Positions 1,411 to 60,817 of a stretch of DNA of 64,000 bases are shown one piece after another. Under the pieces are notes generated by a model. That model was not told the origin of the DNA. It ran no database searches and saw nothing but the letters and a program-made list of their open reading frames with translations. Positions within the stretch are counted from its first letter, which is position 1, and each line of letters starts with the position of its first letter. The translations under genes and the position numbers were made by a program. The DNA lies in IMG/VR virus record IMGVR_UViG_3300006092_000356, positions 10,513 through 74,512 of that record, one strand, 5' to 3'. The stretch is from a virus. Lineage: Duplodnaviria > Caudoviricetes.

Positions 1411-1520
1411 TAGGGGACCCAAGGCCACCCCAGGTTGTGGGGCCGCGCGCCGCCCACCACCTGTCTCCTTGTAATTTGAAAAAAAAAAAAAAAAAAATAT
1501 ATAGGGGTAGGGGACCCAAG
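1411..1520 (+). repeat. 13-bp direct repeat TAGGGGACCCAAG flanking a 19-nt poly(A) run
   Basis: copies at 1411-1423 and 1508-1520; A-run 1479-1497. Confidence 0.85.
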
Positions 1521-1530
1521 CCCCTACCCC
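1479..1530 (-). terminator. putative intrinsic terminator of the leftward operon
   Basis: perfect 10-bp stem GGGGTAGGGG-7nt-CCCCTACCCC (1504-1530), followed on the minus strand by TATATA and a long U tract. Confidence 0.6.
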
Positions 1531-1545
1531 AAATCACCGGTCCCT

Positions 1546-1561
1546 TCCACGCCCGCTTACC
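1546..1561 (-). promoter_or_regulatory. copy of motif GGTNNGCGGGCANGGT (2 mismatches)
   Basis: minus strand GGT-AA-GCGGGCG-T-GGA. Confidence 0.45.
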
Positions 1562-1770
1562 TACATTTTATCAGCGTCAACGATGCACGCCCGAAAACCC
1601 AGGTAGTTGTGCGGGGTGTTTACGTACTCATGTAATACCACCTTCCCGTCGCGCTTCTTGCACTCAGCAATCGGGTCGAACACAGGCGCAGACGGGGTTG
1701 CCATGTTAGCGGGCTTGGCTAGCATATAACAAACTACTATGATGAAGGCAAAGACTAGGATTGTACGCAT
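1561..1770 (-). CDS. small membrane-anchored/secreted protein
   Basis: N-terminal hydrophobic stretch MRTILVFAFIIVVCYML. Confidence 0.65.
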   Translation of the reverse strand: MRTILVFAFIIVVCYMLAKPANMATPSAPVFDPIAECKKRDGKVVLHEYVNTPHNYLGFRACIVDADKM

Positions 1771-1774
1771 GATT

Positions 1775-1957
1775 TTACTCCCCGCTGTCCTCTCGTAGAA
1801 GCTCGGCGTACCAAGAAAGCTCTCTAAGCACTTCCGACGTCTTCAAGCCATCAAGGTACTCTTCCCAGGCGACGTCATCAGTGGGACCAAGGGCGTTCTT
1901 ACACCTGTTCCATTCCCACGTTGTTCGCCAAAGCGCGGTCACTTTGTCTATCATCAT
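1775..1957 (-). CDS. hypothetical protein
   Basis: ORF track; tight packing in operon. Confidence 0.6.
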   Translation of the reverse strand: MMIDKVTALWRTTWEWNRCKNALGPTDDVAWEEYLDGLKTSEVLRELSWYAELLREDSGE

Positions 1958-2022: not shown

Positions 2023-2328
2023 CTACGAGTAGTGGCCTACGAAGTAGTAATCACACTCTACTTGTAGTCCTGTAAGTTTTTCAATTTGGTCGTGTATTGT
2101 TTTATGTCTTGTGCCAACAAAGTTCAGGCGTGTGGGTCCGTCAGAGGTGTCACCGTCAGACCCTACACAGATCGACTTACCGATCATGATGTATTTTCCG
2201 CACATACCATCAATGATGAAATCAAGCTCGGGGTAGTCGTCCTCGTGTTGTTCACAAAGCTCGGCTAGTTTAGCAGAGTACGGAAATTCGGCTCCGTACA
2301 TAACGTACGCCGTATAGTCTACACCCAT
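2023..2328 (-). CDS. hypothetical protein
   Basis: ORF track; GAGG RBS; operon context. Confidence 0.7.
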   Translation of the reverse strand: MGVDYTAYVMYGAEFPYSAKLAELCEQHEDDYPELDFIIDGMCGKYIMIGKSICVGSDGDTSDGPTRLNFVGTRHKTIHDQIEKLTGLQVECDYYFVGHYS

Positions 2329-2333
2329 TTTTG

Positions 2334-2438
2334 TTACCTCTTCGTTTTGTTTCGATCTTTAAACACGTACAACCCAACAATCACCCACATGAAGAAGGCG
2401 AGTAAGTTGAACAGACCTACCATAGTGTCTACTGACAT
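2334..2438 (-). CDS. hydrophobic micro-peptide, 34 aa (MSVDTMVGLFNLLAFFMWVIVGLYVFKDRNKTKR)
   Basis: translated by hand; one TM stretch, basic tail; 1 nt from upstream ORF. Confidence 0.6.
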   Translation of the reverse strand: MSVDTMVGLFNLLAFFMWVIVGLYVFKDRNKTKR

Positions 2439-2439
2439 T

Positions 2440-2517
2440 TTATCCCGCTACCAATACAGTGAGGAGCGTGAGACAGAGCACGCCCAGTAAAATGAGCCCG
2501 GTCTTTAGATTACGCAT
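2440..2517 (-). CDS. hydrophobic micro-peptide, 25 aa (MRNLKTGLILLGVLCLTLLTVLVAG)
   Basis: translated by hand; 1-nt spacing to both neighbours. Confidence 0.55.
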   Translation of the reverse strand: MRNLKTGLILLGVLCLTLLTVLVAG

Positions 2518-2518
2518 G

Positions 2519-2656
2519 TTAGCCACCTATGACTGCGAGGATGAAAAAGACGAACATGATACAAAACAGTACTAGCTGATCTTCGTTTACGGACACATTT
2601 TGCCAGATGAAGTACATGACACCTGCAAAGGCTGTGCCGTAAAGGAATTTTTTCAT
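2519..2656 (-). CDS. two-TM micro-peptide, 45 aa (MKKFLYGTAFAGVMYFIWQNVSVNEDQLVLFCIMFVFFILAVIGG)
   Basis: translated by hand; two hydrophobic segments. Confidence 0.6.
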   Translation of the reverse strand: MKKFLYGTAFAGVMYFIWQNVSVNEDQLVLFCIMFVFFILAVIGG

Positions 2657-2658
2657 GT

Positions 2659-2727
2659 TCATCCGCCGATCACGAACAAAATGATAGCGATCACGATAAG
2701 AATAAAGAAAATATCACCCATGTTCAT
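2659..2727 (-). CDS. hydrophobic micro-peptide, 22 aa (MNMGDIFFILIVIAIILFVIGG)
   Basis: translated by hand; GGAG RBS. Confidence 0.55.
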   Translation of the reverse strand: MNMGDIFFILIVIAIILFVIGG

Positions 2728-2735
2728 CTCCATCC

Positions 2736-2816
2736 TCAGTGTTGCGTGTTTGACCACGCAACCAGGAATAACACTACCACAGACCAAACCGTGACGGCTA
2801 GGATATCTTCTCTCAT
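2736..2816 (-). CDS. hydrophobic micro-peptide, 26 aa (MREDILAVTVWSVVVLFLVAWSNTQH)
   Basis: translated by hand; GAGGT RBS. Confidence 0.55.
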   Translation of the reverse strand: MREDILAVTVWSVVVLFLVAWSNTQH

Positions 2817-2818
2817 GG

Positions 2819-2914
2819 TTACCTCATGTTGCGCATAAAAGTAACAATGAGCACGATGTAGAACACAACGATGCCTACAACGCCACCAGCAATGAATAAC
2901 AGGATAGAGTTCAT
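2819..2914 (-). CDS. hydrophobic micro-peptide, 31 aa (MNSILLFIAGGVVGIVVFYIVLIVTFMRNMR)
   Basis: translated by hand; AGGA RBS. Confidence 0.6.
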   Translation of the reverse strand: MNSILLFIAGGVVGIVVFYIVLIVTFMRNMR

Positions 2915-2933: not shown

Positions 2934-3935
2934 TTAGGTGTTCTTGTCCAGCCAATACCGCTGCGAGATATACTTCAACGACACACGCCCGATATCAGGG
3001 TGGAGACGTTCCTCGACAGGCGTGATCACTACGCCTTCGCTCATATGTCCAAGCGGAGCGGTTGGAACTAAGCTGTTCCACTCCGCAATTTTTTCAATAG
3101 TGTCCTTGGAGTACGGCCCCATCATAAAAATAGGGACGCACGGCAACGTAAGCTCGTCAATCACGTTGAACCACTCGCCAGTGCGACAGTCAAACTGTGC
3201 GAAAGCTGCGAACTTGGGTTCGGTTAAGCCGTATTTCAGGGCCTGGACAGGCCCGTAAATCTCACCGTAGAGAACGTTGTCAGGGTGATCTTTACAGAAC
3301 TCTACGATCTCAGGGTTCTCACGTAAAACCCTAGTCCAGATGTTGTTGCTGTCAGGCTTGAGCCAGCGGTTGCGCGAGCCGACGAACATCTTCCCGTTGT
3401 GCCACATGTAACGGGCGTTTGCTCCGTCGATCTTCTCAGTAACGTACACCAGTTCGCCGGGTTGAATGATGTCCGGGTAGCGCTGAATGTTCTCAAGATC
3501 GAACTTGGGGGACGGGACTGAAGGGTGATCGCACGCGGGTAACTCCTGCGCGTCCCCGAAGGACACGTTGCCAGGACGGACAGGCGGAACATAGCGGGTG
3601 ATGCCTAGGTCAGTCATGACGTTGGTACCGACAGGCAGCGTCGCCAGCGAAGGCGGGCAAGGGATAAGGAGACCGAACGACAAAGCGCCACGGAGCTTCA
3701 CCGCCTTGAGGCGGTGAGGCTTACCTTCACCCTTCTTGTCGAGGAAGGCGAACTCTGGCCACGTCGTGTCGACAACGTAGTCCGGCTCGATATAAACAGC
3801 CTTGTCGCCGACCTTGAACTGATCGGCGCCAACCACACACTGCCACCCGCCGACGTTCACGACGGCGAGGCGATCAGCGTTGACGTGCTTGCTGATGTTG
3901 TCGATCTCAACAATGTTTACAGCGTGCGTGCTCAT
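2934..3935 (-). CDS. RNA ligase, DRB0094 family (Rnl2-like)
   Basis: N-terminal OB-like NADRL...GWQCVV...FKVGD.AVYIEPD; motifs TEKIDGAN, YGEIYG, SEGVVI, LKYIS. Confidence 0.9.
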   Translation of the reverse strand: MSTHAVNIVEIDNISKHVNADRLAVVNVGGWQCVVGADQFKVGDKAVYIEPDYVVDTTWPEFAFLDKKGEGKPHRLKAVKLRGALSFGLLIPCPPSLATLPVGTNVMTDLGITRYVPPVRPGNVSFGDAQELPACDHPSVPSPKFDLENIQRYPDIIQPGELVYVTEKIDGANARYMWHNGKMFVGSRNRWLKPDSNNIWTRVLRENPEIVEFCKDHPDNVLYGEIYGPVQALKYGLTEPKFAAFAQFDCRTGEWFNVIDELTLPCVPIFMMGPYSKDTIEKIAEWNSLVPTAPLGHMSEGVVITPVEERLHPDIGRVSLKYISQRYWLDKNT

Positions 3936-3939
3936 GTTT

Positions 3940-4500
3940 TTATCCCTTACAAAACTCTTCGATGTCCTGGCGCGTTTTCACCAGTGTAAAGGTCTCAGCC
4001 AAATATCCGCCACAAGACTCTAACCCGGTAGGTGCGTCGACACTGACGACGTACACGTACTGAGGGTTTTTGTTAAGATAGTATGCCTGCACATCATCTT
4101 CGTCATCAATGATGCTTTCCATGTTCTCGGTAAACTTGCCACTTGCATCCCCACGGTGCCAATCAGTGTAAACGACAACGAAGAGACGGTCTTTGTTCTT
4201 TATGCGAACAATGTCACCAATGTTGAACGGCGCCACGTCACTCATACCTGTTACCGCGTCGGCATCTACAAACTTGCTTGCTTCCCACAGCCCGTCCGTG
4301 CAAAAAGTGTTGTCTTTGTTCAACCATACGATGTGAAAGTAGTCGTCTCCGGTGAATGGAAAATGCGCGATGATTTTACCAGGGTTATCGTCTCTTGTAG
4401 CGACGACAACAGCGACAGAGTTGTGTTTATCCCCATAAAACGCGGCTGTAGCGGAGTTCTTGAATTTGACAAAGTCGCCGGGCTTGAAGTTGTGTGTCAT
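3940..4500 (-). CDS. hypothetical protein with two SH3/KOW-like repeats; paralogue of 4502..5053
   Basis: FKPGDFV and FNIGDIV repeats; shared VVVYTDW and P.YVYVV....G.ESC. Confidence 0.75.
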   Translation of the reverse strand: MTHNFKPGDFVKFKNSATAAFYGDKHNSVAVVVATRDDNPGKIIAHFPFTGDDYFHIVWLNKDNTFCTDGLWEASKFVDADAVTGMSDVAPFNIGDIVRIKNKDRLFVVVYTDWHRGDASGKFTENMESIIDDEDDVQAYYLNKNPQYVYVVSVDAPTGLESCGGYLAETFTLVKTRQDIEEFCKG

Positions 4501-4501
4501 G

Positions 4502-5053
4502 TTACTCTTCCAACTTGTTGATAAGTTCTTCTCTAGTATTCACATGCTTTAGATCATCCGGGAATACTCCAAAACACGATTCACTGCCCCTACTTGGGTT
4601 AAGACATACGACATAGATATATTCTGGATATTTTGTGTATTTTCTTTCCTGTTCGTCGGACAGGTCATCAACAACCGATGACATTTTTTCTTTGTAGTCA
4701 AGGTCGGCATCTTCACGGTCCCAGTCCGTGTAAACAACAACGTAGTATGCTCCGGGAAAGCCGTGCCGATACTTTACCACGTCTCCAATCTTAAAAAATG
4801 ACGTCTTATGTTGTTTTGCGATGACGAAGTCACAAGCACTATAGCTACCGTTGCTTTGATTTACTGGAACGTTTTCGAGAGCGAGCCAGTGCAAATTAAT
4901 TTCGTCTTCATTGACGGGTTCATTGCTCCTGTAAGGATTGTCCGTTCGCGTTGAAACAACAACAGCAACCGCTTTGTCGGTAACACCGTATCCTCGTGAC
5001 AGGTTCTCAGACTTTAAGCTTACAAAATCACCGGGTTTGAAGGTGTGTGTCAT
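4502..5053 (-). CDS. hypothetical protein with two SH3/KOW-like repeats; paralogue of 3940..4500
   Basis: FKPGDFV and FKIGDVV repeats; VVVYTDW, PEYIYVV...GSESC. Confidence 0.75.
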   Translation of the reverse strand: MTHTFKPGDFVSLKSENLSRGYGVTDKAVAVVVSTRTDNPYRSNEPVNEDEINLHWLALENVPVNQSNGSYSACDFVIAKQHKTSFFKIGDVVKYRHGFPGAYYVVVYTDWDREDADLDYKEKMSSVVDDLSDEQERKYTKYPEYIYVVCLNPSRGSESCFGVFPDDLKHVNTREELINKLEE

Positions 5054-5223
5054 GTTAATTTTCCTTGCTTGTTAAACCGGCGGTGGGAGAGGAAGTGTAC
5101 AACTTCTCCCTCCCCCACCTAGCTACCTATACACTCAGATGAGACGAAGTGTAAGAAAACGCCCCTGCCCCTCATCGCAGGTCTTTCGTAGGGCGTAGTC
5201 TTTGTCGGCGCTGAAAAGACCAT

Positions 5224-5239
5224 ACCCTGCCCGCTTACC
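5224..5239 (-). promoter_or_regulatory. exact copy of motif GGTNNGCGGGCANGGT, inside putative promoter of the leftward operon
   Basis: minus strand TTGCGA-gc-GGGTAAGCGGGCAGGGTATGGTC, collinear with 57928-57958. Confidence 0.65.
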
Positions 5240-5267
5240 CGCTCGCAACTTCCCTCTTTCCACAAGG

Positions 5268-7613: not shown

Positions 7614-7969
7614 ACGATTTTGACGCGTACCAGGACTTTACCCGCGAAACAGCTATTTTTCCAGACGACGCAGGTATTGCTTACTGCGCTTTGAAACTTA
7701 ACGGAGAAGCAGGCGAAGTTGCTGAAAAGGTTGGAAAGTTTGCTCGCGATAAGGCGCGTGGTATTACCAACAAAGCATATCTTACGCACCCTGACTACGA
7801 CGACTTCGTTGATACGGTTATCTTAGAGCTTGGTGACATTCTTTGGTACATTGCACAGGAAGCTGACCAGTTGGGAGTGCCTTTGTCTACCGTCATCGCA
7901 CGCAACAAGGAGAAGCTACTGTCACGGCGCTCACGTAACGTAATTTCAGGTTCTGGAGATAACCGATGA
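7610..7969 (+). CDS. mazG: MazG-like nucleotide pyrophosphohydrolase
   Basis: LNGEAGEVAEKVGK and ELGDILWY motifs; YQ.F..ETA N-terminus. Confidence 0.85.
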   Translation: MNDFDAYQDFTRETAIFPDDAGIAYCALKLNGEAGEVAEKVGKFARDKARGITNKAYLTHPDYDDFVDTVILELGDILWYIAQEADQLGVPLSTVIARNKEKLLSRRSRNVISGSGDNR

Positions 7970-8073
7970 GTGAAGGAGAGGTCGTACTTATGGCTATCTT
8001 TATCATTCTTTTAGGCACGGTAGTGGCGTACGCGATAGCTGACACGTCCAACGGCGACGAAGACCAAAATTAA
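7966..8073 (+). CDS. hydrophobic micro-peptide, 35 aa (MSEGEVVLMAIFIILLGTVVAYAIADTSNGDEDQN)
   Basis: translated by hand; ATGA overlap with mazG stop. Confidence 0.55.
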   Translation: MSEGEVVLMAIFIILLGTVVAYAIADTSNGDEDQN

Positions 8074-8096: not shown

Positions 8097-8186
8097 ATGA
8101 GAGAAACAATCGCGTTATGGTCCTCTCGTGCCGCCGTGGTGGTGGTATTCACAGCCCTGTTTTGGGCGTTCATAGTAGGAGTGTAG
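8097..8186 (+). CDS. hydrophobic micro-peptide, 29 aa (MRETIALWSSRAAVVVVFTALFWAFIVGV)
   Basis: translated by hand; GAAGG upstream. Confidence 0.5.
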   Translation: MRETIALWSSRAAVVVVFTALFWAFIVGV

Positions 8187-10102: not shown

Positions 10103-10548
10103 ATTTGAGTGAAAGTCACGAAGCTGAAGTGCAGAAGGCCTTGCGCAATCTCAACGGCAACCCTGATAACGACCGCAAGGTTATTCAGGATATGTCTCCT
10201 GAGGCGCGAGCGGCTTTCGTTACATCAATGAACGCTGCAACCGCCAGCGCACGCGCGAACTATGACCCTGACCCGACTCAGGCTGTTGTCGATGTCGGGA
10301 GGGAGCTTATTGTTGGCCTCAAGGACGCCCTGAACCGGGTAGCAATTATCCTCCATATTCTTGATGAAGAGAAGATGCGCGACAGGTATGAAACCGCTAT
10401 GGGCAAAGAGGACTATGATGGGGTCAAGCGCCGCATCGGCGGTATGGGTTATTCCTTGACTCAGATCGGCAGCGAACTGGGGTACATCCTGTACGGCGCG
10501 CGTAACACAGCCCAACCTCCTGCTAGCGCGGAGGCCACCAATGACTGA
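10099..10548 (+). CDS. hypothetical protein
   Basis: ORF track; ATGA overlap. Confidence 0.65.
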   Translation: MNLSESHEAEVQKALRNLNGNPDNDRKVIQDMSPEARAAFVTSMNAATASARANYDPDPTQAVVDVGRELIVGLKDALNRVAIILHILDEEKMRDRYETAMGKEDYDGVKRRIGGMGYSLTQIGSELGYILYGARNTAQPPASAEATND

Positions 10549-42316: not shown

Positions 42317-42442
42317 TTACTTCTTGATTTCAGTCTTTACCGCGTCTTTAACAGCGTCGGCCTTGGTACGAAAAGCAGGGATATGCTTATACGCAAGGTA
42401 GGCCGCAACGGCAGCGACAACAAGCCAAACGACGTATTCCAT
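42317..42442 (-). CDS. 41-aa single-TM protein upstream of endolysin (MEYVVWLVVAAVAAYLAYKHIPAFRTKADAVKDAVKTEIKK)
   Basis: translated by hand; AAGGA RBS. Confidence 0.6.
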   Translation of the reverse strand: MEYVVWLVVAAVAAYLAYKHIPAFRTKADAVKDAVKTEIKK

Positions 42443-58027: not shown

Positions 58028-58582
58028 ATGTTTCCAACCACTGTGAAGAAGAATTTTGAGAAACTGGCGGTAGCCTACGCCGCAGCTAAGATTGAGTTTC
58101 CGCATTTGCGCGGTATCACCCTGGCTCAGTGGGCGCTGGAAAGCGGCTGGGGTGGTACCGGCCTTGCATCACGGCATAATAACTACGCCGGAGCAAAGTG
58201 GCGTAAGTACATGGCGCCGTACGGTTATAAGGTGCAATACGATGCGCACGACGGTAGGGAGTGGTACGTACACTTCACCGACGAAGCGGCATTCATTGCT
58301 GGCTACTGGAAGCGCCTAGACCTGGAGCCTGCTTACGCTGGTTGGCGTGATCATACGGCTACACCGGAAGAGTTCATTAAGTTTGTTGGTCCTATTTGGG
58401 TAGGCACCGACGACGCAGATAAACAGCGTTATGTCCGTGACGTGCTGCGTATCTGCAACGCTTGGAAGCTCGCGGACCACTTCAAAACGACGGAGATCGT
58501 TAATGAGGACAAAGATGTTAATCACTTGGAGCTTAGTGGCAGTCCTAGCACTTTGGACAGTCGTTATCACAGGCCTTCCTGA
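58028..58582 (+). CDS. peptidoglycan hydrolase, glucosaminidase/FlgJ-like (GH73)
   Basis: TLAQWALESGWG, NNYAG.K, F.....F..GY. Confidence 0.8.
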   Translation: MFPTTVKKNFEKLAVAYAAAKIEFPHLRGITLAQWALESGWGGTGLASRHNNYAGAKWRKYMAPYGYKVQYDAHDGREWYVHFTDEAAFIAGYWKRLDLEPAYAGWRDHTATPEEFIKFVGPIWVGTDDADKQRYVRDVLRICNAWKLADHFKTTEIVNEDKDVNHLELSGSPSTLDSRYHRPS

Positions 58583-59079: not shown

Positions 59080-59502
59080 ATGTTTCTTCCACGAATGCAG
59101 AAACTGGAAGCACAATTCATCAACTATACGGGGGCGTTCCCTGACGAACAGACCCCTATATGTGACAGATTCGGTATGGTCTACAAGGCCATACCGGAAC
59201 TGACATCTGTGTCTATTTCTTCTGATCTCACGCCTTTGTGGCAGGAAGCGTTAGACAAATGGGAAGGTCAGCGCCTTCTTTGTGCTGCTGACTTGTGTCG
59301 TCTACGCTATCATCTATACGACCAAATCTACCGAAACAACATGTGTTTTATGCACACGCTGGTTTACGAACAGGCCGCGTGCGAACTGTGGTTAAACAAG
59401 TTAATGGCTAAAATAGTAGCTATGAAGCAGGCACGCCGTCAGGGCGGGCGCATTAGAAAAGCGTATGTTCCTGTGATACACGCTCCGCATTGGCTGAATT
59501 GA
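59080..59502 (+). CDS. hypothetical protein
   Basis: GGGAG RBS. Confidence 0.6.
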   Translation: MFLPRMQKLEAQFINYTGAFPDEQTPICDRFGMVYKAIPELTSVSISSDLTPLWQEALDKWEGQRLLCAADLCRLRYHLYDQIYRNNMCFMHTLVYEQAACELWLNKLMAKIVAMKQARRQGGRIRKAYVPVIHAPHWLN

Positions 59503-59701
59503 CATCACGTGCGATAAGATCAAACACGTATTCAATTGCCGACGCCCCGAAGTGACCGAACACACCTGCCATTACGAAAGCCCACTGGCCTACCTGCTCA
59601 TTATAGCCGGCAGACCACATACCCATACTAGCAGCAACAAGGCCACGCAGAAGTAAAAGACTGAGCACAAAATAAAAACTTTTCAAAATACACTTATGCA
59701 T
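59453..59701 (-). CDS. small membrane protein
   Basis: two hydrophobic segments; downstream of holin. Confidence 0.5.
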   Translation of the reverse strand: MHKCILKSFYFVLSLLLLRGLVAASMGMWSAGYNEQVGQWAFVMAGVFGHFGASAIEYVFDLIARDVNSANAERVSQEHTLF

Positions 59702-60053
59702 TAGGCATCTCCGGCTTTTTATCTTCCGGCTTCGGAGGAATGGTACCGCCCATTACTTTGTCACGAAGAACTGAGGCTAACCAGTCGAGACCCTGTGTTC
59801 CTAAATACCCGCCGACACCAGCAGCGACCATGGCCCAATTCACAGAGAATTGAAGCATTGCTTGAGCTACCATGTAACCGGAAAAACCGCTAACGAGCGC
59901 GTGTGCAACTAAAAGACCAAGGCGCGGGCGATCACCCGTGCGAATGTACGAATCCAAATAGCGCGCAATACCGCCAAGCATGGCAACAAGCACCCAAATA
60001 AGCTCACTACCTACTTTTAACAAAGACACGCTAGTGTCGGGAGTAACAGACAT
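59694..60053 (-). CDS. holin (LydA-like)
   Basis: AMLGG.ARYL, VSGFSG.M, AAG.GG.LG...LDW; three TM segments. Confidence 0.7.
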   Translation of the reverse strand: MSVTPDTSVSLLKVGSELIWVLVAMLGGIARYLDSYIRTGDRPRLGLLVAHALVSGFSGYMVAQAMLQFSVNWAMVAAGVGGYLGTQGLDWLASVLRDKVMGGTIPPKPEDKKPEMPNA

Positions 60054-60199: not shown

Positions 60200-60817
60200 A
60201 TGCGCAGAGCTAAAACCCTTACGGATCAGCAACTTAACACGCTTCTTACACATATTGCTGCTACCAGCAAGGAGCCGCTGCGCGACTACGTCATGGTTCT
60301 TTTGTCGTTTAAGGGCGGGTTGCGCGCCGCTGAAATCGCCGGTCTGTCATGGCGAGACGTGTGTGACGCCGAAGGAAAGATCGGCGATATCATCAACTAT
60401 GATGACAACGGTGCCCCGGTTTATGGCTTTTCTGTGCCTCCCCACATCGCCAAGAAAGGGCATGGGCGTGCGGTCCCTCTCAACAACGGGTTACGGGCAG
60501 CACTTGAAGCTTACCGTAAGACGGTGCCCGCGCCGTTCGCCAGAGGGGCCAATCCAGTCATACACACGCTGTATGGTCGCATGAGGCCCAATACGCTCCA
60601 GAAGTACCTTGGGCGTATGTATCGAAGTGCCGGGTTTGACGGCGTGTCATCGCACTCAGGGCGACGCACGTTTACCACGCGCGCAATCCGCGTAGCGAAT
60701 ACAGTTGACTGCTCCATCAAGGATGTGCAAAAGATAGTGGGGCATCGATTCCTGTCAACGACAGAAGCCTACATCGATCTTAGCCCGAACACAGGAGCGC
60801 TTGTAAATGCAATATGA
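60200..60817 (+). CDS. tyrosine recombinase, catalytic domain only
   Basis: GLRAAEIAGL (R), KKG (K), SHSGRRTF (HxxR), GH, Y intact; 205 aa. Confidence 0.9.
   Translation: MRRAKTLTDQQLNTLLTHIAATSKEPLRDYVMVLLSFKGGLRAAEIAGLSWRDVCDAEGKIGDIINYDDNGAPVYGFSVPPHIAKKGHGRAVPLNNGLRAALEAYRKTVPAPFARGANPVIHTLYGRMRPNTLQKYLGRMYRSAGFDGVSSHSGRRTFTTRAIRVANTVDCSIKDVQKIVGHRFLSTTEAYIDLSPNTGALVNAI

Follow-up and report, generated by a model that had tools for sequence, protein, structure and literature searches.

Six consecutive transmembrane micro-genes downstream of an RNA ligase in a tailed phage: a candidate cassette of host-directed membrane peptides

Introduction

Can a run of open reading frames (ORFs) of a few dozen codons each, lying between two ordinary phage genes, be a set of functional genes in its own right, and, if so, what could peptides that amount to little more than a membrane helix do for the phage that encodes them? 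The locus raising this question belongs to a tailed phage (Duplodnaviria; Caudoviricetes) represented by the IMG/VR record IMGVR_UViG_3300006092_000356. It occupies positions 2334–2914, on the minus strand, of the 64,000-nucleotide (nt) stretch analysed here (hereinafter the window; positions 10513–74512 of one 74,512-bp contig), and comes directly after an RNA ligase gene. We report that it consists of six consecutive short ORFs, p1 to p6 (31, 26, 20, 45, 25, and 34 codons), which in all likelihood are genuine genes maintained by purifying selection. With a probability of roughly 0.6, and by analogy with better-known small proteins, we read their products as accessory inner-membrane micro-proteins that act on host membrane proteins or on membrane permeability and are encoded by a co-transcribed, translationally coupled six-gene array. 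Small phage proteins are in general numerous and understudied (PMC11323111).

An array of six hydrophobic micro-ORFs

The six ORFs follow one another in this order:

p1: 2819–2914, minus strand; 31 amino acids (aa), a single transmembrane (TM) helix bearing a small-xxx-small motif, followed by a basic C-terminal tail
p2: 2736–2816, minus strand; 26 aa, a single TM helix
p3: 2659–2721, minus strand; 20 aa, a nearly bare TM helix with a VIGG end
p4: 2519–2656, minus strand; 45 aa (47 aa from an alternative start at 2662), a probable helical hairpin with a VIGG end
p5: 2440–2517, minus strand; 25 aa, a basic N-terminal tail followed by a TM helix
p6: 2334–2438, minus strand; 34 aa, an Asn-containing TM helix followed by a strongly basic C-terminal tail (+4)

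The spacers within the series measure 1, 1, 2, 2, and 14 nt; 19 nt separate the stop codon of the RNA ligase from the start of p1, and 5 nt separate p6 from the start of the next gene. The locus is an array in the sense of at least three consecutive ORFs of fewer than 50 codons on one strand, each encoding a TM helix and divided by minimal spacers. Every peptide has one apolar run of 15–25 residues with a mean Kyte-Doolittle hydropathy of 2.4–3.4, flanked by tails of 0–11 residues; in p4, a weaker segment of 15 aa (1.43) is followed by an acidic 9-residue loop and a strong segment of 18 aa (3.01).

An earlier reading of this DNA, made from the letters without database searches (hereinafter the sequence-only reading), had described six hydrophobic micro-ORFs of 22–45 aa spaced 1–8 nt apart, each essentially one TM helix and one of them with two, most of them preceded by sequences resembling ribosome-binding sites (RBSs) and two ending identically in VIGG. 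All six ORFs are indeed present and closely packed, the hydropathy profiles agree with the helix count, including p4 as the ORF with two, and the identical C-termini are those of p3 and p4. The dimensions had to be corrected to 20–45 aa and to spacers of 1–14 nt; p3 in particular, formerly taken as 22–24 aa, comes to 20 aa, since its two upstream ATGs are missing from relatives. As for the RBSs, a purine-rich Shine-Dalgarno-like site precedes all six starts, and on average these sites are stronger than those of the long genes: the mean pairing energy with the anti-Shine-Dalgarno sequence is −5.6 kcal/mol in the array as against −4.4 for 52 long phage genes and −1.6 taken over all ATGs (n = 2294; P about 3 × 10–4).

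When the 581 nt were shuffled 5000 times with dinucleotides preserved, no more than three such hydrophobic ORFs ever arose, as against the six observed, and an ORF coverage of 99.5% was reached in 0.08% of them. A six-frame scan of the genome recovered 629 ORFs of 20–60 codons, of which 28 are this hydrophobic in a 15-residue window; six of these 28 are the consecutive same-strand ORFs of the array. Further hydrophobic micro-ORFs of 35, 29, and 41 codons lie between long genes at 7966–8073 (plus strand), 8097–8186 (plus strand), and 42317–42442 (minus strand), two of the three adjoining on one strand; those at 7966–8073 and 42317–42442 had no match in PHROGs. Beyond the array, there may be other membrane micro-genes in this phage that annotation has missed.

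By all comparisons made, the array is composed of orphan families. Searches of Pfam with all six peptides gave no match other than a chance-level one of p1 to Syndecan (E = 0.98), and PHROGs gave none for p1, p4, and p6. A phmmer search of 1.8 billion representatives with p4 recovered no relative outside the phage group, the one other match being a spurious one to a repetitive 755-aa protein. Language-model neighbors of p4 and p6 were low-scoring and mostly unnamed clusters; the nearest named ones of p6, YldA-like (0.80) and MgtS-like (0.77), lie below a meaningful level and serve as a lead only, and none of the array peptides matched the corresponding Pfam families (MgtS-like, PF22865; YldA, PF23689). 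With tblastn, p1 and p6 found no match among phages, for which the low-complexity filter is possibly responsible. At the DNA level, the array region and its 8-kb neighborhood had no match in 50,697 phage records, and scans of IMG/VR and JGI with the ligase or the portal returned only distant loci devoid of synteny. The portal is at most 46% identical to that of any of the same 50,697 records, its best matches being mostly from alphaproteobacterial siphoviruses (Rhodobacter, Ruegeria, Mesorhizobium, and Caulobacter).

Genes of 20–30 codons fall under the length floor of common gene finders, and for this reason half of the array is absent from the public gene calls examined. On these contigs, p2, p3, and p5 are never called and p1, p4, and p6 are called on some; on one ENA contig, the whole interval from the ligase to the following gene is devoid of gene calls. 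The expectation that standard annotation would miss the array therefore holds for the former three ORFs and has to be relaxed for the latter.

Purifying selection and modular turnover among relatives

Relatives were gathered as environmental contigs through protein searches with p4, the flanking 101-aa protein (g101), and the RNA ligase. The p4 search yielded one homologue, 87% identical, and homologues of g101 at 78% and 53% identity provided synteny anchors. The array-bearing contigs form three lineages at 82–90% DNA identity: lineage A comprises the window and L018; lineage B, which comes from five samples or more, comprises L014, L015, L016, L025, and L026; and lineage C comprises L020 and one ENA contig. 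The frames are kept in these related genomes, as the sequence-only reading had anticipated for real genes: all six are intact in lineage B (L014, L015, and L025), where 61 of 475 bases differ from lineage A across p1–p5 (~87% identity), and p2–p6 are intact in lineage C (L020), which lacks p1.

The ratio of nonsynonymous to synonymous change (pN/pS), pooled over the array frames, is 0.24 between lineages A and B, 0.23 between A and C, and 0.25 between B and C. Control frames on the same strand gave 0.8–2.0, and the three antisense frames gave 0.56–1.5 with many stop codons, on which account coding on the strand opposite the array was rejected. Between A and B, 30 of 69 changes are nonsynonymous versus 77% expected (P = 3.6 × 10–9), and the changes are distributed over codon positions 1, 2, and 3 as 19, 11, and 40 (P = 7 × 10–5). 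Amino-acid replacements are mostly hydrophobic-for-hydrophobic. Taken singly, five of the genes are significant at 0.05, namely p1 (pN/pS 0.24 versus lineage B), p3 (0.07–0.30), p4 (0.15–0.22, with 87–91% identity in lineages B and C), p5 (0.30–0.33), and p6 (0.27).

Length changes respect the borders of the ORFs. Lineage B carries a 56-nt purine-rich insertion exactly between p5 and p6 (L015:4545–4601), and in lineage C p1 is gone as a whole unit, with p2 starting 17 nt past the ligase stop codon. The 56-nt insertion is made of repeated GCAGGGGA-like units; elsewhere in the same lineage, between the ligase stop codon and p1 (L015 about 4030–4069), the ~22-nt ribosome-binding spacer is tandemly duplicated. 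Because selection is frame-specific, insertions and deletions (indels) leave the borders intact, and shuffling fails to reproduce the series, we hold with very high confidence that the six ORFs are real genes under purifying selection, as judged from comparative sequence data.

The locus varies by whole genes. In L017, whose ligase is 68% identical, the ligase is directly followed by a 33-codon ORF with a 33-aa product 42% identical to p1 (z = 5.5 versus shuffles), then by a different hydrophobic ORF of 24 codons, and then, where p2–p6 would be expected, by a gene for a 285-aa pentapeptide-repeat protein (L017:2778–3635; PF00805, E = 2.9 × 10–30). Pentapeptide-repeat proteins are often DNA mimics; if this one is too, it would, by analogy, fit an anti-host or anti-defence character of the variable slot. 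The loss of p1 in lineage C and the retention in L017 of a p1-like gene with one other hydrophobic micro-ORF bear out the earlier description of the array as a cassette. On the contigs compared, then, the array is accessory and modular, with single ORFs that come and go between related phages in a plastic region. One contig of lineage B, L014, has the array without the RNA ligase: the junction falls within the last ~25 nt of the ligase gene, and upstream of it (L014:1–300) lies AT-rich foreign sequence with another TM ORF of 47 codons. Either L014 derives from a genuine recombinant, or its metagenome assembly is chimeric.

Translational coupling and the shared VIGG ending

Translation of the array is predicted to be coupled, with the final codons of each ORF doubling as the RBS of the next. 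The last two codons encode Met-Arg before p2 (where GAGG lies 5 nt before the ATG), Gly-Gly before both p4 and p5, Ala-Gly before p6, and Lys-Arg before the 101-aa gene, and they form the RBS that follows. Because the Gly-Gly codons contribute to the RBS of the next ORF, the VIGG ending common to p3 and p4 would at least partly reflect a nucleotide-level constraint, which we infer to explain it better than a shared function. The weak similarity between the two peptides (z = 3.5, uncorrected for 28 comparisons) makes an old duplication possible. A double-glycine bacteriocin leader or pheromone was also considered and rejected: the Gly-Gly of p3 and p4 stands at the extreme C-terminus before the stop codon and is preceded by a TM helix. 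No C39-peptidase ABC-type exporter was found among the large ORFs profiled.

Comparison of the lineages also bears on the start codons. Since lineages B and C have lost both ATGs farther upstream (2733 and 2727), the start of p3 is fixed at 2721; p5 has the start codon ATG in the window and lineage C and GTG in lineage B. Overlapping the p3 stop codon, the codon at 2662 is ATG, TTG, and GTG in the three lineages; its variable base is at the same time the synonymous third base of the last Gly codon of p3, and p4 is consequently either 47 or 45 aa long.

Proposed mode of action

In the account that we favor, the six peptides would be translated separately from a message shared with the RNA ligase in one minus-strand operon and would insert in the inner membrane, five of them as single helices and p4 as a hairpin. 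The positive-inside rule would put the C-termini of p1 and p6 inside, along with the N-terminus of p5 and both ends of p4. Because almost nothing would protrude from the bilayer, the peptides are expected to act within the membrane, where they would pack helix to helix on host inner-membrane proteins such as transporters, sensors, proteases, or components of injection or defence; alternatively, they might self-associate and alter permeability. Such action would serve host takeover, the exclusion of rival phages, or counter-defence. Small-xxx-small motifs are present in p1 and p4 and a conserved Asn in the helix of p6; in other membrane proteins, both kinds of feature drive helix–helix packing as TM dimerization motifs. 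It is these motifs, along with peptide size, topology, and cassette-like turnover, that point to an accessory, host-directed role.

Four observations weigh against this account. The peptides have no homology to characterized proteins, so that the proposed function rests on analogy. For p2, intact as it is in all three lineages, the pN/pS of 0.22–0.62 comes from few changes and is not individually significant. The array-bearing lineages are close to one another, and the conservation therefore spans a shallow tree. Finally, in L021 and L023, with ligases 56–61% identical, soluble small genes stand at the place of the array.

A more specific version would make each peptide the dedicated intramembrane inhibitor of one host membrane target, and the array a fast-evolving anti-defence or exclusion toolkit whose members are swapped singly. 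The targets would then be sought among the TM effectors of abortive-infection or other defence systems, injection-channel components, and transporters. We offer this version tentatively and think it on balance unlikely; were it true, bare transmembrane helices would constitute an unannotated class of phage weapons.

The operon around the array

The sequence-only reading had placed the array immediately behind the RNA ligase, in an operon with a 16-bp motif at its head, and this arrangement is upheld. On the minus strand, the motif is followed by SH3/KOW-like paralogs, the RNA ligase, p1–p6, three small genes, and a terminator. Apart from p1–p6, the elements are:

16-bp motif (core GCGGGCA): 5223–5238, minus strand; an exact copy, ~170 nt ahead of operon gene 1
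Operon gene 1: 4502–5053, minus strand; 183 aa, a paralog of operon gene 2
Operon gene 2: 3940–4500, minus strand; 186 aa, a tandem small β-barrel (KOW/SH3/Tudor-like)
RNA ligase: 2934–3935, minus strand; 333 aa (phrog_968, E = 3.8 × 10–44)
g101: 2023–2328, minus strand; 101 aa, soluble
g60: 1775–1957, minus strand; an ORF of 60 aa with no family match
g69: 1561–1770, minus strand; 69 aa, an N-terminal signal/anchor helix and a 51-residue tail with two Cys
Intrinsic terminator: 1504–1530, minus strand; a 10-bp stem with eight GC pairs, then a long T run

With up to three mismatches allowed, the 16-bp motif occurs seven times in the window as against 0.41 expected, and in lineages B (L015) and C (L020) this operon is likewise preceded by the conserved core. 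It is a candidate promoter, operator, or RNA site; since two copies directly follow the stop codons of other genes (429–444 and 1545–1560), it is not clearly a promoter. Downstream of the motif, the 5′ leader of the operon (5060–5240, minus strand) displays a terminator-like hairpin with a T run (5181–5164) and, immediately ahead of the first RBS, a second hairpin that is long and GC-rich; it might act as an attenuator or be regulated in another way. From 5053 to 1561, no convincing internal promoter or terminator was detected, one weak stem of three GC pairs lying within p2.

Operon gene 1 had no significant match in Pfam or PHROGs. For operon gene 2, an AlphaFold model with a mean confidence (predicted local distance difference test, pLDDT) of 68.7 resembled Spt5 KOW and tandem Tudor/Agenet domains only weakly in a Foldseek comparison (best E = 1.7 × 10–3), which yielded no lead as to function. 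The SH3/KOW-like paralogs number one in lineage B, two in A, and three in C, and the copies (3940–5053 in the window, L015:2462–3022, and L020:2296–3995) are 22–56% identical to the reference at 3943–4500 of the window; the family appears from this to be expanding quickly. Homologues of the RNA ligase carry PF09414 and PF21189. The product of g69, which had no family match, is probably exported, and because of its signal/anchor helix and two-Cys tail the distal half of the operon looks envelope-directed. By eye, we rejected a lipoprotein or spanin reading of p5 and g69: the Cys is preceded by Leu in p5 and by Val in g69, neither making a lipobox, and p5 would leave only 10 apolar residues after its Cys.

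Competing explanations

A part in lysis is the first alternative to be weighed, and the phage has a lysis module of its own:

Glucosaminidase endolysin: 58028–58582, plus strand (PF01832, 45.7 bits versus a cut-off of 30.2)
LydA-type holin: 59694–60053, minus strand; 119 aa (PF16083, 34.6 bits versus a cut-off of 28.4)
Second holin-like gene: 59453–59701, minus strand, within the lysis module

The 16-bp motif occurs in a stack of three copies immediately ahead of the endolysin gene, which is followed by a probable signal-anchored 187-aa protein facing the two minus-strand LydA-type holin-like genes. Beyond these, a 205-aa ORF (60200–60817, plus strand) matches phage integrase families (phrog_216, E = 4.9 × 10–32) but falls short of the profiles in length (301 and 611 positions); in a genome that otherwise looks lytic, it may represent a tyrosine recombinase in truncated or minimal form.

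The array lies ~55 kb from the endolysin and holin genes rather than next to the endolysin and, going by this placement, is not the canonical holin/endolysin system of the phage; the option of lysis timing, which the sequence-only reading had listed among others, loses ground accordingly. The peptides could nevertheless be lysis-timing accessories, be they antiholin-like, holin-like, or membrane-weakening, that tune the distant LydA-type holin: they are small TM proteins, the presence of the 16-bp motif upstream of both the array operon and the endolysin could mean co-regulation, and lysis cassettes with several holin-like TM genes are described in actinobacteriophages (PMC9671378). Set against this are, besides the distance, the lack of a match to any holin family for all six peptides (Pfam, E ≤ 1), their length of 20–45 aa compared with 82–119 aa in the holin-like proteins of the phage itself, and the copies of the motif after stop codons, which blur its standing as a promoter; we judge such a role improbable. 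Typical holins are likewise larger than 20–45 aa.

The six peptides might instead be stoichiometric subunits of one hetero-oligomeric membrane complex with seven helices, e.g., a channel. Tight translational coupling would favor equimolar synthesis, p2–p6 always occur together in the three lineages, and the small-xxx-small and Asn motifs would favor the packing of helices. However, p1 is dispensable in lineage C, L017 makes do with a p1-like gene and one other micro-ORF, and the lineages with p2–p6 are too close for their co-occurrence to weigh much, which leaves such a complex improbable. We rate no higher the view that the peptides depolarize the membrane in the manner of type I toxins, for host shutdown or addiction. 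They resemble TisB, Ibs, Ldr, and Fst in size and hydrophobicity (see also the review PMC12648545); but they are encoded by operonic genes with good RBSs, and the locus shows no sign of a dedicated antisense RNA, the array region having no Rfam match and the one promoter-like hit on its opposite strand being within chance (8 found versus 4.6 ± 2.2). That the array is non-functional, with ORFs that arose by chance in a T-rich spacer or are the remains of a larger multi-pass membrane gene broken by frameshifts, is close to refuted. The ORFs are very short, their families are orphan, and gene finders never called three of them, but purifying selection is frame-specific, the three lineages keep a start, stop, and Shine-Dalgarno sequence for each ORF, indels fall between ORFs only, the shuffles exclude chance, and no larger homologue of p4 turned up among the 1.8 billion representatives; the frameshifted gene was rejected.

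Implications and comparison with known systems

Half of the array is never called and yet is clearly maintained by selection. The array also offers criteria by which such genes can be annotated: frame-specific pN/pS, indels placed only between ORFs, and an RBS inside the last codons of the preceding gene. A catalogue of small phage genes was reportedly assembled by Fremin et al. in 2022. If the targets of the array peptides are host membrane proteins, these peptides would be compact natural inhibitors and part of a new layer of phage–host conflict.

Several known systems share traits with the array. Hok, TisB, Ibs, Ldr, and Fst are hydrophobic inner-membrane peptides of 19–50 aa, and such type I toxins resemble the array products as small hydrophobic membrane peptides; they are, however, solitary and each repressed by an antisense RNA, whereas the array has six coupled operon genes with ordinary RBSs and no antisense partner that could be detected. 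Small phage membrane proteins that block or hijack a function of the host envelope by contacts made within the membrane include T4 Imm and Sp, P22 SieA, and the 37-aa LysM of phage M; no homology of the array to them was detected. The lysis cassettes of actinobacteriophages contain multi-gene clusters of holin-like TM proteins (Pollenz et al., 2022, PMC9671378), which are like the array in consisting of consecutive small TM genes whose number varies between relatives. Those clusters adjoin the endolysin, and their products are larger (88 aa with two TM domains in an example from PMC13056207), whereas the array follows an RNA ligase and encodes peptides of 20–45 aa.

Single-helix bacterial regulators of membrane proteins, reviewed in PMC12648545, provide a further comparison. 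AcrZ, MgrB, MgtS, KdpF, and CydX are, like the array peptides, shorter than 50 aa, built of a single TM helix with little soluble part, and often missed by annotation (PMC12648545). They share no sequence homology with the array, which differs from them in being phage-encoded, six in a row, and translationally coupled. Regulators of the AcrZ type bind a larger membrane protein (PMC12648545), and by analogy the peptides of the array may each have such a partner in the host membrane.

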